NCBI GenBank assembly: GCA_000004695.1
Contig: CM000154.2
Coordinates: forward strand, 1,440,001 to 1,504,000
Source of the DNA: Dictyostelium discoideum
Taxonomy: Eukaryota
Direction of reading: 5' to 3'
Length of the DNA stretch: 64,000 nucleotides
Under the pieces are notes generated by a model. It was not told the DNA's origin, ran no database searches, and saw only the letters and a list, made by a program, of their open reading frames with translations. This document shows positions 14,377 to 26,756 of the stretch, in pieces; position 1 is the stretch's first letter; the number at the start of each line of letters is the position of its first letter. The translations under genes were made by a program, and so were the position numbers.

Positions 14377-17300
14377 CAATCAATAAAAAGAAAAATTTTC
14401 TGGTTCAGTATTTTTGTGTTTTGGGGATTTTGGTTTTTTAATTGGTTTTTCATCTTGTTTTGGTTGTTTTAAATGTGGAAAAGATAGTTTTGGTTGTATT
14501 GATGATTGTTGATGGTCTAATTTTGGTTGATCATGTTGTTGGGAAAGAGGTTCTACAATTTGGGGTATTTTAACTCGAGTTTGTTCTTCTTCCTGTTGTT
14601 GTTGTTGCTGCTCTTGTTGTTCTTGTTGAATATCATGGTCAACAAAATCTGATTGAGAATCAGATTGACTGAATGAACAATTTTCTAAATTTTTAAAACT
14701 TTCAAAATGGTTTGTAACATAAGTATATGTACCAGCCAATACTCTTTCAGAAACAATTTGATCTTCAATTTTATTCATCCATTTTAGTTTTTCATCACTT
14801 ATTATAATTAGAGCTCCTAAACTTAAGGTACCCAAGTTTGAACTACTACTAGTAGAAACTTTTTTTGAATTATGATAAATTGCAAATCCACTTGGGTATC
14901 TATAGTCATAATCGCATACTCTTGAAATATTGGATAATGAAATTACAGTAGCCTTTTTATTAAATAATGAGTTCTTTTCTGCAAATACAATTCTTTGATT
15001 AAATAAATACAATGTACCTTCTGAAGTACTACCATTTTTATTGACCTTTTTAACTTTTCCTTCTCTATAATAAAAAAAAAAAAAAAAAAAAAAAAAAAAA
15101 AGAAATTAATATTATTAGAATAATTATTATTTTTAATTATATTATTAAAAGATTATTATTTTAAACTTACCCTATAAAAGTTTGATGATGTAATAAATAT
15201 TCTATATCTTTTGTGCCAATTTCTTTAATGATTTCTTGGATTTTAGTATCATTTTTCATTTTACCATTAATATCACTGACAATCTTTCCCATTAAAGAAG
15301 TTGTACGTTTAATGGTTTTATGGTTTTGTTCATCTTCTTTTGGTAATGCTTTACTCAATTCTTTTAATAATAAAGGATATTTACAAAGTCTTTGACATGG
15401 TTTAATTAAAAATGAATGTAGATTGTTTAGTTTACAAATTGGTATTAATTTTTGAAATATTTGTGCTGCTGTTTGATTTGTTAATAAAATTTCCTGTAAA
15501 AATTTATTACAACTATCATGTGATGATAAATATGATCCATATCTTTGAAAACTTTTACTCTATAATATTAAAAATATTATTAATTAGTATTTTTTTTTTT
15601 TTCTTATCTAATAATTGTTTTTTTTTATTTTTCAAAAGACTTACATTAAATAAAAAAACTTCTTCAATATTTGGATATTGATTCTTTTCTAATAATGGAA
15701 TACAATTTAATAACATTGGATAAATTTTTAAAGAAATATGATAAACTTCTTCAAAATTTGAAAAGATTGAAAAAATATCTCTTTTTTCCAATATTTTATA
15801 TTTTACCATTTCCAATGCGGCAAAAAGATAAAAATTAATTGTAATTTCCATATGGTCTAAATAGTCTGCCTCAGTTTCTATGATTTCTTTAACAACCTTA
15901 TTAAAAATGGTTGAATCATTAATATATGGTAATTGTGATCTTCTTGATGGTATTGATTCAAATTTTTGTTGTTGTTCTTCAATTTTTTCAAATATAACAG
16001 ATTTGAAATCAAATTTATTAAAAAGAGATGGTCTTTTTTTTGATACTGTTGCATTTGGAATTAATGTACTAACTGGTTCTTCTGGTAAACTTACAGTTCT
16101 ACCATGTTTTGTTTCTGTAACTTTTAATGTGTCCTTGTTATTATTATTGTTGTTATTATTATTATTATTATTATTAGTAGTAGTATTGTTATTATTATTA
16201 TTGCTATTATTTTTATTTGTTGTTTGATTTTCTTGATCATCTTCATCACTACAAGAACCTCTAAGATTATATGAACTTTTACTAATTACAAATGAACCCC
16301 TATTAGAAGAAGATACACTTTTAAGATTAGGTTCACTATCAAGAGTAGTACCACTCTTTTTGGATAGTTCTGATTCATTTTCATCATCGGTATCAACTCC
16401 ATTATCAAGTAATTTCATAGTGGCAGCTTTTCTAGTAAAAACTCTTTGTCTTCTAGTTCTAACGACAGGTGATATTTGTGATTGACTTAACTCTGATGAA
16501 TCATTACCAAAAACATAGTCATCAAAGTTTTCAAAATTAGGTTTTGATGGTTCAAAATTTAAAAAATTACTTGGAGATTTACCACCACTTCCACTACTAC
16601 TACAACAACTACCACTACTATTTAATGATGATGGAAATATTGTTGGGTTTGTTACATCAAATAGAGTTGTTGACCTTTTTGGTGCTATATTTGAAAATGA
16701 ACTATCGATTGGTTTATTTGCCGATCTCCAACCATTTGATGTATTTAATAAATTTCCAAGAGGTGGTGGCGATGATGACAATGGAGATGTGGAGTTTTGT
16801 AAACCCTCATTATTATTTTGATCATTAAAAGTTTCAATTTTAGAAGGTACTCTTGGTAATGGTTTAGGTGCCATTGTGTGATAATCTTCTTTCTCTTGAT
16901 CGATTGGTATTGGTGGAAGAGGTTTATTTTTATTAAATTCTGGTGAATTAAATTGTGGTGGAGTTGTTGATGTTTTAATATCTTCACCACTATAATTGTC
17001 ATCATAATTATCATCATAATTGTCACCATCTTCTTTTTTTTCAAATGTAATATTAATTGATGGTGGTGTTGTTGGTATATAATTAGTGATTTTTTCATCT
17101 GCACCATCATTCATTAAAAATGCTCTTGGTGGAACAGGTGGACGTTTTGGTTTTGGTAATGGTTCAAGTAATGGCATGGATAAACTTTTTCTTCTTGATC
17201 TTTCTCTATTATTATTTTTGATATTATTGGTATTACTATTATTATTGTTATTGTTATCAAATGATTTTGATAAATTTTTTATTTCCATTTCATTATCTAT

Positions 17301-17655
17301 AAAAAAAAAAAAAAAATAAAAGAAAAAATAATGGTAATAATAAAAAAAAAAAGAAATTAAAAAAAAAATAAATAAAAAAAAAATAATAATAAAAATAATA
17401 ATTGAAAAAAAAAAATTAAAAATTAAAAAAACAAAAAATTAAATTGAAATAATAAAATAAAATAAAAAAAGTGAATAAATAATTTATAATAATAATTTTA
17501 TAATAATGAAGAAAAAAAAAAAAAAAAAAAAAAAAAAAAAAAAAATTAATAAAATAATAAAAAACATATTATAATTATTAGAAATAGTTCTTACCTTGAA
17601 ATTTGTCTAAATTTAAATTACTATCAATACCATATTCTATATTAATATTCTCCAT
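14377..17655 (-). CDS. RhoGEF (DH-PH) protein, paralogue A, 4 exons
   Basis: Structure is complement(join(14377..15064,15171..15559,15645..17296,17595..17655)). The main exon (ORF 15555..17288) carries the DH start NKVVKEIIETEADYLDHMEITINFYLFAALEMVKYKIL...PNIEEVFLFN, followed by GTAAGT. Exon 15171..15559 is SKSFQRYGSYLSS...FLIKPCQRLCKYPLLLKELSKALPKEDEQ...HHQTFIG (DH C-terminus, matching ORF 15167..15358), followed by GTAAGT. Exon 14377..15064 is a PH domain (EGKVKKVNKNGSTSEGTLYLFNQRIVFAEK...). The tentative 5' micro-exon 17595..17655 (MENINIEYGIDSNLNLDKFQ, then GTAAGA) joins in frame to ...DNEMEIKNLSK. Exon order and content are collinear with the intronless paralogue at 23358..26365. Confidence 0.75.
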
Positions 17656-26300: not shown

Positions 26301-26756
26301 TGTTGATGATGATGATGATGGTTGTTGTTCATTATATTTTGAAATCATTGTTGAAACTCCTGAAACTATTAATTAATTTTATTTTTTAATTTATTTTTAA
26401 TTTATTAATTTTAATCATAATGGTTAATTTTTTTTTTTTTTTTTTTTTTTTTTTCCTCAATAATTTTGTTTTTATTTTTTTTATTTTTATTTTTAAAAAT
26501 AATTTCTATACATACATTTCCTTTGAGGTAAAACTTGATGTGTTTGTTGTTGTTGTTGTTGTTGTTGTTGTTGGTTTTTATCAATTTGATTTACAAGAGA
26601 GCCAACACTAAACATTTTTTGGTTAGAATTTTCATTAATAATTTTATTTTTATTTACAAAGGTATTATTATTATTGTTTACCACTGTTGTTGTATTTTTT
26701 GGTGGAGTTAAAAATTGGTGGCTGGGAGATGGATTCGAGGTTGAATTTTTTCTCAT
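23358..26756 (-). CDS. RhoGEF (DH-PH) protein, paralogue B; long Pro/Ser/Thr/Asn-rich N-terminus; probable 5' exon
   Basis: Structure is complement(join(23358..26365,26516..26756)). The main ORF is 23358..26348 (996 aa). Its DH domain is NKVIKEIIETEADYIDQMEVIINLYYFAALEMSKYKL...LIKPCQRLCKYPLLLRELKKALPPEDD...GTKDIEQQLRDQTFL. Its PH domain is KKKGNKVIVTLYLLSQILIIFEK.... The pre-DH motif RTLRQRTFTRKQASMKL is shared with paralogue A (RTRRQRVFTRKAATMKL). The upstream ORF 26493..26756 (MRKNSTSNPS...HQVLPQRK) ends at a GTATGT donor in phase 1. The acceptor aattaatAG at 26366/26367 joins in frame to ...FSGVSTMISKYNEQ. The 5' exon is tentative. Confidence 0.8.

Follow-up and report, generated by a model that had tools for sequence, protein, structure and literature searches.

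Evidence for the loss of two ancestral introns from one of two paralogous RhoGEF genes in Dictyostelium discoideum

Intron loss in Dictyostelium has been catalogued by Ma et al. 2015 (PMC4683709), who list 441 precise losses in D. discoideum and read them as mediated by reverse transcription. In the two species of that study together, 2 imprecise losses stand against 643 precise ones. Across the D. discoideum genome, lost introns show no enrichment of short repeats, losses of neighboring introns occur in excess, and a raised GC content of the exonic flanks is regarded as a signature of biased gene conversion (PMC4683709). Table S1 of the same paper includes, as a precise loss in D. discoideum, an intron at position 2280 of DDB_G0288383 that D. 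purpureum, P. pallidum, and D. fasciculatum still have. In the neighborhood of this gene, precise D. discoideum losses are listed for DDB_G0288373, DDB_G0288383 itself, and the gene immediately beside it, DDB_G0288385 (a DUF2465 gene), and a D. purpureum loss is listed for LIS1 (DDB_G0288375) (PMC4683709).

Exchange factors of the Dbl family in which a PH domain follows the DH domain include P-Rex1, Asef/ARHGEF4, collybistin/ARHGEF9, Tiam1, and intersectin, as well as the Dictyostelium Gxc RacGEFs (for example GxcDD, GxcC, GxcM, and GxcU); the GTPases of Dictyostelium are Rac-type only (PMC1914345). Here we describe two genes of this DH-PH type, A and B, in a 64-kb stretch of the D. discoideum genome (the window). 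Their products have the same domain order as the animal proteins named above, which the profile of the A/B family matches with E-values from 6e-31 to 1e-23, and the CR1 (ETEADY) and CR3 (IKPCQRLCKYPLLL) motifs of Dbl-family Rac/Cdc42 GEFs are intact in the family. In contrast to those animal GEFs, A and B are devoid of accessory SH3, DEP, PDZ, or FYVE domains and possess long, low-complexity, proline-rich N-termini with a dictyostelid-specific basic motif, and the identity is only about 25-30%. They also differ from the characterized Gxc proteins encoded in the same genome, which carry extra domains (CH/IQ/ArfGAP in GxcDD, FYVE in GxcU). In the main texts of papers, no functional work on DDB_G0288383 or on its paralogue came up, and searches of the literature for gxcH/gxcI gave only unrelated matches to GxcII/GxcJJ.

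The gene models and the surrounding features are collected in Table 1. Both genes are on the minus strand, 5.7 kb apart, in agreement with the same-strand spacing of about 6 kb given by an earlier sequence-only reading of this DNA; a gene with vWA and UQ_con domains lies between them, hence they are not strictly adjacent. That reading ended A at 14377, where we find the last base of the stop codon at 14380. It also placed two introns of A at the DH/PH boundary and described B as intronless. One of the two introns is indeed located in the DH-PH linker, but the other interrupts the middle of the DH domain, and B is uninterrupted throughout the DH-PH region but has kept an intron near its 5' end. 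The three predicted introns of A are AT-rich (GC 6-11%) and each runs from GTAAG to ATAG; an independent annotation of the orthologue in 'D. cf. discoideum' gives the same structure. The junction of the two B exons (QRK/FSGVS) is matched in the 'D. cf. discoideum' gene, and D. purpureum B has QRK/MTGVS. The domain coordinates of DH and PH in both genes were verified by translation. A scan of the 64-kb window found no tRNA genes.

Table 1. Coordinates of the two RhoGEF genes, their domains and introns, and the neighboring genes in the window
Feature	Position	Strand	Description
RhoGEF gene A	14380..17655	-	928 aa, 4 exons; predicted from open frames and canonical introns
A exons	17655..17595, 17296..15645, 15559..15171, 15064..14380	-	
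A intron 1	17297..17594	-	298 nt, phase 1, close to the 5' end; equivalent in 'D. cf. discoideum'
A intron 2	15560..15644	-	85 nt, phase 0, mid-DH, ...EEVFLFN / SKSFQRYG..., residues 571/572
A intron 3	15065..15170	-	106 nt, phase 2, DH-PH linker, after ...HHQTFI
A pre-DH basic motif RTRRQRVFTRKAATMKL	16410..16460	-	residues 300-316
A DH (RhoGEF) domain	15266..15896	-	residues 488-669; PF00621 E 1.2e-34; split by intron 2
A PH domain	14722..15064	-	exon 4; family profile against collybistin, FARP2, Trio, and Vav structures
RhoGEF gene B	23358..26756	-	1082 aa, 2 exons (26756..26516, 26365..23358), predicted
B intron 1	26366..26515	-	150 nt, phase 1, GTATGT...ATAG; sole intron left in B
B pre-DH basic motif RTLRQRTFTRKQASMKL	25275..25325	-	residues 428-444
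B DH (RhoGEF) domain	24162..24731	-	residues 626-815, uninterrupted; PF00621 E 7.1e-37
B PH domain	23592..24068	-	Asn/Thr-rich low-complexity insertion of ~55 aa; family alignment and PDB profile search
Lost DH-internal intron site in B	24476..24477	-	phase 0, ...EEIFLYN / SKAFQRYG...; CDS continuous, no indel
Lost linker intron site in B	24066..24067	-	phase 2, within Lys codon after ...DQTFL
vWA + UQ_con gene	21040..22575		between A and B
DUF2465-family gene (DDB_G0288385)	27715..28644	-	adjoins B; tblastn from D. purpureum and T. lacteum loci, Pfam labels
LIS1-like WD40 gene	12662..13984	+	tail-to-tail with A; tblastn, 85% identity to D. purpureum gene

Gene B is DDB_G0288383. The positions in the published Table S1 include upstream introns, as the LIS1 row demonstrates (1023 + 85 = 1108), and for B the sum of 2130 and the 150-nt intron is exactly the tabulated 2280. 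By gene numbering only, A is presumed to be DDB_G0288377.

A and B are true paralogues, with a similarity that exceeds by far the likeness among RhoGEFs in general. They share 55% identity over 327 aa (BLASTP, E 1e-102), an alignment that spans DH and the N-terminal half of PH, and the C-terminal helix of the PH domain matches as well (E 2e-4). Pairwise alignment had been suggested as a check on the relationship. A common pre-DH motif had also been pointed out; it is present in both proteins, with 12 of 17 positions identical, and is conserved in all 12 family members that we examined, according to the pattern [RK][RK]T.RQ..[LF][TS]RK.A[ST]..L, which precedes ETEADY by 120-200 aa. The likeness of A and B is not confined to generic DH motifs: in a phmmer search against 1.84 billion proteins, family members were retrieved at E-values between 1e-115 and 1e-31, whereas all other RhoGEFs scored 1e-25 or worse with identity of at most 39%. 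Both proteins belong to the dictyostelid orthogroup that contains PPL_08827, DFA_08610, DLAC_07655, and DICPUDRAFT_77025 and 77030. Their N-termini, previously described as completely different, are unalignable, yet both are proline-rich and of low complexity and include the basic motif.

The assignment to the Dbl family is based on the PF00621 scores (A, 120.5 bits; B, 127.8 bits; cut-off, 27.6). Pfam PH has no match in either protein. However, positions 32-356 of the family profile align with the solved DH-PH structures of ARHGEF9, FARP2, Trio, Vav, and NET1 and cover the C-terminal helix of PH as well, which places a PH domain directly C-terminal to the DH domain. The family alignment shows no variation in ETEADY, in QRLCKYPLLL, or at the Asn of (D/E/A)IN; we take the CR1 Glu, the CR3 Q-R..K-Y-LLL residues, and this Asn to be the GTPase-contact residues of DH domains. 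Purifying selection is evident for each gene in comparison with 'D. cf. discoideum' (dN/dS 0.03-0.04). From their sequences, A and B are both predicted to be still functional Dbl-type exchange factors, presumably acting on Rac-family GTPases.

Intron sites and phases were compared by exact protein-to-DNA splice mapping in seven related genes. The DH-internal phase-0 intron is found in both A and B of D. purpureum, in the A genes of D. discoideum and 'D. cf. discoideum', and also in H. album, C. fasciculata, and A. subglobosum. The linker phase-2 intron is found in these four A and B genes as well and, among the other species, in T. lacteum and A. subglobosum. The two introns of D. purpureum B are 65 nt (DH-internal) and 67 nt (linker) long. 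Since A orthologues, D. purpureum B, and dictyostelids further away in the phylogeny have them at identical sites and phases, both introns are ancestral. T. lacteum, H. album, and C. fasciculata each represent an independent loss of one or the other; these outgroup cases aside, the only genes that lack the two introns are the B genes of the window and of 'D. cf. discoideum'. The data support a loss of both from B later than the split from D. purpureum and earlier than the divergence of 'D. cf. discoideum'. At either site the B alignment continues without insertion or deletion, so that the losses are exact. Along the B coding sequence the lost introns map at fractions of 0.66 and 0.78, and the kept one at 0.07.

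Synteny with other Dictyostelium species, a comparison that had been recommended as a check, provided two anchors, DUF2465 and LIS1. A DUF2465 gene adjoins the single-copy RhoGEF gene in T. lacteum and the B gene in both D. purpureum and the window, and LIS1 adjoins A in three genomes. B thus retains the ancestral neighbor that the T. lacteum gene has, and therefore B is at the ancestral locus and A on the LIS1 side is the relocated copy. In D. purpureum the A-type and B-type genes are on one scaffold, about 15 kb apart. In a neighbor-joining tree, the group-4 A and B genes form a clade with 100% bootstrap, and the other dictyostelids, with one gene each, fall outside of it; three mis-trimmed sequences in this tree served only as distant outgroups. 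As the proteins searched were single representatives of 50% identity clusters, another paralogue in an outgroup species may have escaped. In the tree, D. purpureum A is not recovered as sister to D. discoideum A and groups weakly (62%) with the B clade; therefore, the A genes are assigned as orthologues from their LIS1 synteny and common PH-domain features. Estimation of Ks, another proposed check, was run but does not date the duplication: dS between A and B is ~0.9 and saturated, with a range of 0.8-1.4 over all A/B and D. discoideum/D. purpureum pairs, and thus cannot order duplication and speciation. Relative-rate tests give a clearly faster evolution of A than of B in D. purpureum, but in D. 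discoideum with one outgroup only, so that an asymmetry between the copies is at most tentative. Altogether, a duplication that is local but old, dating to the ancestor shared by D. discoideum and D. purpureum, is supported.

We consider it very probable that the present structures derive from an old local duplication of a gene with three ancestral introns, two of which B later lost, likely through conversion by cDNA. A single ancestral dictyostelid DH-PH Rac-GEF gene, with a 5' phase-1, a mid-DH phase-0, and a DH-PH linker phase-2 intron, would have been duplicated locally in group 4 after the T. lacteum lineage had left, and both copies would have inherited all three introns. B remained beside DUF2465, with A as the copy on the LIS1 side. 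In the D. discoideum lineage, both introns on the 3' side of B, which are adjacent, were then removed exactly, and the 5' one was preserved. Judging only from this pattern, a reverse-transcribed spliced B cDNA most likely converted the chromosomal B gene, and a single conversion tract of at least ~410 nt would cover both sites. Precise loss of adjacent introns on the 3' side fits cDNA-mediated gene conversion; in B the removal is exact, the 5' intron is spared, and both losses are seen in 'D. cf. discoideum' too. An A-derived cDNA as the donor was considered and rejected, as A and B show no excess similarity within D. discoideum.

Two separate genomic deletions in B, for example by end joining or replication slippage, would leave the same two introns absent, and with no B gene among the sampled species in which one of them is gone and the other kept, such deletions retain some probability. 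In their favor, the single losses in T. lacteum, H. album, and C. fasciculata indicate that each site can go alone, and the GC content of the exonic flanks is enriched at one site of two (site 1, 0.33 in B vs 0.21 in A; site 2, 0.19 in B vs 0.27 in A). However, independent deletions have to account for two nucleotide-exact removals at adjacent 3'-side sites while the 5' intron survives, and Ma et al. 2015 found imprecise losses to be rare, short repeats not to be enriched, and adjacent losses to be over-represented. We therefore regard such deletions as unlikely. The sequence-only reading had proposed a local duplication followed by intron loss or gain, or else a retro-copy; the duplication and the loss in B stand, and the other two proposals do not. 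Were the ancestor continuous in the DH-PH region like B, A would have acquired its two introns after the duplication, and the window taken alone is symmetrical for gain and loss. However, the introns share codon and phase with those of D. purpureum B and of dictyostelids older than the duplication (H. album, C. fasciculata, A. subglobosum, and T. lacteum), and gain would demand at least five parallel insertions at identical sites, which leaves intron gain scarcely credible. Equally implausible is an origin of B as a processed copy derived from A or from the ancestral gene and placed nearby, a possibility raised by the two introns missing from its DH-PH region. A processed retrocopy has all introns absent and lies at a new, non-syntenic locus, but B has a 150-nt intron at the D. 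purpureum B site and sits at the ancestral DUF2465 locus, as the single-copy T. lacteum gene does. In addition, the D. purpureum orthologue at the B locus still has its introns, and B is no closer to A (58% identity) than D. purpureum B is (56%).

The B case follows the genome-wide pattern of Ma et al. 2015, in which losses are precise, adjacent, and on the 3' side. The DH-internal loss is already catalogued and events of this kind are known; the case is an ordinary one and mostly known. The linker loss of B was not found in Table S1, likely because P. pallidum and D. fasciculatum are without this intron and as outgroups cannot polarize it. Here it is polarized by the paralogue A together with T. 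lacteum and A. subglobosum, in contrast to the published analysis, which used no paralogue pair. The losses listed for neighboring genes, plus the second loss in B, could mean, provided that their clustering is not due to chance, that the region is a hot spot for cDNA-templated repair or conversion, a suggestion that we consider very unlikely. If true, it would tie intron loss to local double-strand breaks or recombination, and perhaps also to rearrangements through which the spacing of the A and B loci came to differ between the two species.

The A/B case does not change current understanding, and the linker intron is one addition to the published list of D. discoideum losses. The pair is a clean polarized example, in which one paralogue has two ancient introns and the other lost both precisely, and perhaps together, within a dated interval. 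It illustrates that a paralogue can polarize losses where the usual outgroups fail, and that an intron-poor copy need not be the derived copy or a retro-copy, as the intron-poor B sits at the ancestral locus. For cell biologists, the RacGEF orthogroup described here is specific to dictyostelids, and its conserved basic motif, along with the proline motifs that differ between the copies, may offer a start for work on subfunctionalization.

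The window is rich in A and T (GC 13-43%) and contains poly-Asn and poly-Gln tracts of the kind usual in Dictyostelium. It holds two DH-PH RhoGEF genes, A and B, whose models are listed in the table below together with those of their neighbors. As the sequence-only reading had proposed, the two genes lie about 6 kb apart on the same strand; the distance is 5,702 nt, with one gene in between. The end of A had been set at 14377, but its stop codon ends at 14380. Of the two A introns described at the DH-C/PH boundary, intron 3 does fall in the DH-PH linker, whereas intron 2 splits the DH domain midway (residues 571/572; Pfam DH 488-669). 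Likewise, B is indeed continuous through the DH-PH region, but it is not intronless as a whole. The exon junction at its single 5' intron (QRK/FSGVS) is the same in the 'Dictyostelium cf. discoideum' gene, and the D. purpureum counterpart reads QRK/MTGVS.

Features of the two RhoGEF genes and their neighborhood (window coordinates)
Feature	Position	Strand	Description
Gene A	17655..17595, 17296..15645, 15559..15171, 15064..14380	minus	4 exons, 928 aa; introns of 298, 85 and 106 nt, all GTAAG...ATAG, 6-11% GC
Gene B	26756..26516, 26365..23358	minus	2 exons, 1082 aa; single intron of 150 nt, GTATGT...ATAG
B PH-domain insertion	~23640..23800	minus	residues ~915-970
vWA + UQ_con gene	21040..22575	minus	between A and B
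LIS1	12662..13984	plus	adjoins A; tblastn
LIS1 intron	~13660..13755	plus	after ...GRCLATY
DUF2465 gene	27715..28644	minus	adjoins B; tblastn; gene extent ~27682..28731

The intervening gene encodes a von Willebrand A-like region and a C-terminal ubiquitin-conjugating (UQ_con/E2) domain, an unusual arrangement for an E2 enzyme. Its orthologue in 'D. cf. discoideum' (locus L001, 4365..6207) encodes 569 aa with PF13519 (weak) and PF00179, and in Heterostelium album a 235-aa UQ_con gene (locus L004, 17357..18336) is located about 2 kb from the RhoGEF.

The paralogy of A and B is genuine. The two proteins share 55% identity over 327 aa (BLASTP, E 1e-102) across the pre-DH helix, the entire DH domain and the first PH strands, with an additional match in the PH C-terminal helix (E 2e-4). 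The upstream basic motif noticed in both genes is identical at 12 of 17 residues. Pfam RhoGEF matched both proteins strongly and Pfam PH matched neither; a PH domain in both is nevertheless supported by the family profile, whose alignment with solved DH-PH tandems runs through the PH domain (profile positions 32-348 for ARHGEF9, 41-356 for FARP2, and 40-350 for Trio and Vav). The similarity also exceeds the generic DH motifs of RhoGEFs; confinement to these was what the sequence-only reading had named as its refutation, and it does not hold. When 1.84 billion representative proteins were searched exhaustively with phmmer, about 10 grouped tightly into one family (E 1e-115 to 1e-31, 41-65% identity). 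All others scored E 1e-25 or worse at no more than 39% identity, with a Physarum protein and further RhoGEF orthogroups of dictyostelids following next. Cluster look-up gave as members DICPUDRAFT_77030 (P0001, B) and DICPUDRAFT_77025 (P0003, A) of D. purpureum, P0002 of 'D. cf. discoideum' (the A orthologue), PPL_08827 of H. album, DFA_08610 of Cavenderia fasciculata, and one protein each of Acytostelium subglobosum and Tieghemostelium lacteum (DLAC_07655); for all of these the annotation goes no further than hypothetical or DH-domain protein.

In both A and B the DH signature motifs are intact and a PH domain is present, and the solved structures closest to them are those of the Rac/Cdc42 exchange factors P-Rex1, Asef, collybistin, Tiam1 and intersectin. 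Since the Rho GTPases of Dictyostelium are of Rac type only (PMC1914345), Rac exchange activity would be a reasonable expectation for both. The pre-DH motif, [RK][RK]T.RQ..[LF][TS]RK.A[ST]..L, is conserved in each of the 12 family members, where it precedes the DH domain by 120-200 aa, and thus is a family signature rather than a mark of recent paralogy; one may speculate that its basic-x-x-Ser/Thr layout serves as a basophilic-kinase site, or as a regulatory or binding helix. The N-terminus of A carries a [KR]PPVP[PK][RK]x[FY] motif (RPPVPPR, residues 72-78) that also occurs in T. lacteum (two copies), H. album, EukProt P0009 and metagenome P0151. The B-type proteins lack this motif and instead have PPRPW repeats (PPPRPWSS at residues 272-279 of the window B; four repeats at residues 168-330 of P0001), which hints that A and B may have diverged in SH3-ligand motifs and SH3-type partners. 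Between the GISINY and LSIKLSCDNY strands of its PH domain, B carries about 55 aa of inserted Asn/Thr-rich low-complexity sequence. D. purpureum B lacks this insertion and 'D. cf. discoideum' has it at another length; it represents a lineage-specific expansion of repeats within a folded domain.

The local duplication suggested by the sequence-only reading is supported, yet it is old. In a neighbor-joining tree of the DH-PH region, A and B of D. discoideum, 'D. cf. discoideum' and D. purpureum formed one clade (100% bootstrap) with the remaining dictyostelids outside, which places the duplication in the ancestor of group 4, the dictyostelid group containing D. discoideum and D. purpureum. The B sequences grouped at 70%; D. 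purpureum A was unresolved, joining B at 62%, so that A orthology rests on LIS1 synteny. The proposed Ks estimation carried no dating information, as Nei-Gojobori dS was saturated (0.8-1.4) in all A/B and D. discoideum/D. purpureum comparisons. Against 'D. cf. discoideum', A and B alike gave dS of 0.15 and dN/dS of 0.03-0.04, and are thus both under strong purifying selection. Evolution tends to be faster in A than in B, significantly so with four of five outgroups in D. purpureum but with only one in D. discoideum.

Judged by synteny, B occupies the ancestral locus, and A is the copy now beside LIS1. The sole family member found in T. lacteum lies in the order FNIP, DUF2465, RhoGEF, and the DUF2465-RhoGEF adjacency recurs at B in the window and in D. 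purpureum, where P0001 adjoins the DUF2465 gene and P0003 adjoins LIS1. In 'D. cf. discoideum' the order is that of the window (B-orthologue, vWA/UQ_con, A-orthologue, LIS1). In D. purpureum the two genes are convergent and about 15 kb apart on scaffold GL871002.1; the genes separating A from B differ between D. discoideum and D. purpureum, so local rearrangement came after the duplication.

Intron sites were compared by mapping each annotated protein exactly onto its own genomic DNA. The DH-internal intron (phase 0, after ...IF[LF].[NH]) is present in A of the three Dictyostelium genomes, D. purpureum B, H. album, C. fasciculata and A. subglobosum, and absent from T. lacteum. The linker intron (phase 2, after ...T[FL][IL]) is present in the same A genes, D. 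purpureum B, T. lacteum and A. subglobosum, and absent from H. album and C. fasciculata. Both are absent from B of the window and of 'D. cf. discoideum'. The 5' phase-1 intron occurs in all family genes mapped except that of C. fasciculata. Given the same sites in A genes, D. purpureum B and outgroup dictyostelids, both DH-PH introns are older than the dictyostelid radiation and the duplication, and B lost both after the D. purpureum split and before 'D. cf. discoideum' diverged; the single absences elsewhere are independent losses. A. subglobosum keeps six introns, and its structure looks closest to the ancestral one. D. purpureum A has an extra annotated 47-nt 'intron' (L003 6316..6362, GTATGT...GGCAG, phase 2) in a low-complexity region upstream of DH, found at that place in no other family member, which may be an annotation artefact bridging a frameshift.

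Among the alternatives raised earlier, duplication followed by intron loss is therefore the one that stands. Intron gain in A is excluded because both introns predate the duplication, and a retro-copy origin of B because B retains intron 1 and its ancestral neighbors. Conversion of B by A-derived cDNA is excluded as well, since B is no more like A (58%) than D. purpureum B is (56%). As to how the introns were lost, both were removed exactly, leaving no insertion or deletion. The sites are adjacent, one ~410-nt exon apart, at fractions 0.66 and 0.78 along the coding sequence, against 0.07 for the surviving intron. This matches the genome-wide signature in D. discoideum, where 441 precise losses include 31 adjacent pairs, far above chance, lost introns are farther from the 5' end, there are very few imprecise losses, and the boundaries show no enrichment of short repeats, a pattern credited to conversion by reverse-transcribed mRNA (Ma et al. 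2015, PMC4683709). The B introns would likewise have been removed by conversion with reverse-transcribed mRNA. Two independent deletions could be favored by the GC-flank signature of that study appearing at only one of the two B sites, but the exactness, adjacency and distance from the 5' end make them the less likely course.

One of these losses is already on record. Table S1 of the same catalogue (Ma et al. 2015, PMC4683709) has the row DDB0304693, 2280, DDB_G0288383 -, DPU_G0071828 +, PPA +, DFA +. Its positions count upstream introns, a convention worked out from the entry for LIS1, whose D. discoideum intron after CLATY falls at coding nt 1023 of the D. purpureum gene; with the 85-nt intron upstream in that gene, this gives the listed 1108. 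The DH-internal site of B, at coding nt 2130, plus the 150-nt intron 1 gives exactly 2280, and the +/+ pattern for P. pallidum and D. fasciculatum agrees with our mapping; B is thus DDB_G0288383, and its gene model is supported. Numbering fits gene order (LIS1 288375/DPU 71820; B 288383/DPU 71828; DUF2465 288385/DPU 71832), from which we infer that A is DDB_G0288377. The linker loss of B is not in Table S1, likely because the catalogue's outgroups lack this intron.

D. purpureum LIS1 lacks the LIS1 intron of the window, a loss that Table S1 assigns to D. purpureum (DDB_G0288375, position 1108). Table S1 also has precise D. discoideum losses in DDB_G0288385 (position 731), the DUF2465 gene immediately next to B, and in DDB_G0288373 (position 80), expected from its number just beside LIS1 but not found within the window (Ma et al. 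2015, PMC4683709). Several losses in a few neighboring genes, two of them in B, could reflect chance or a local hot spot.

The event is thus largely known and ordinary, and what is new is the linker loss and its polarisation via the paralogue. The earlier reading resolves into a local duplication of long standing, after which the copy that occupies the ancestral locus lost two adjacent ancestral introns in a lineage-specific way.
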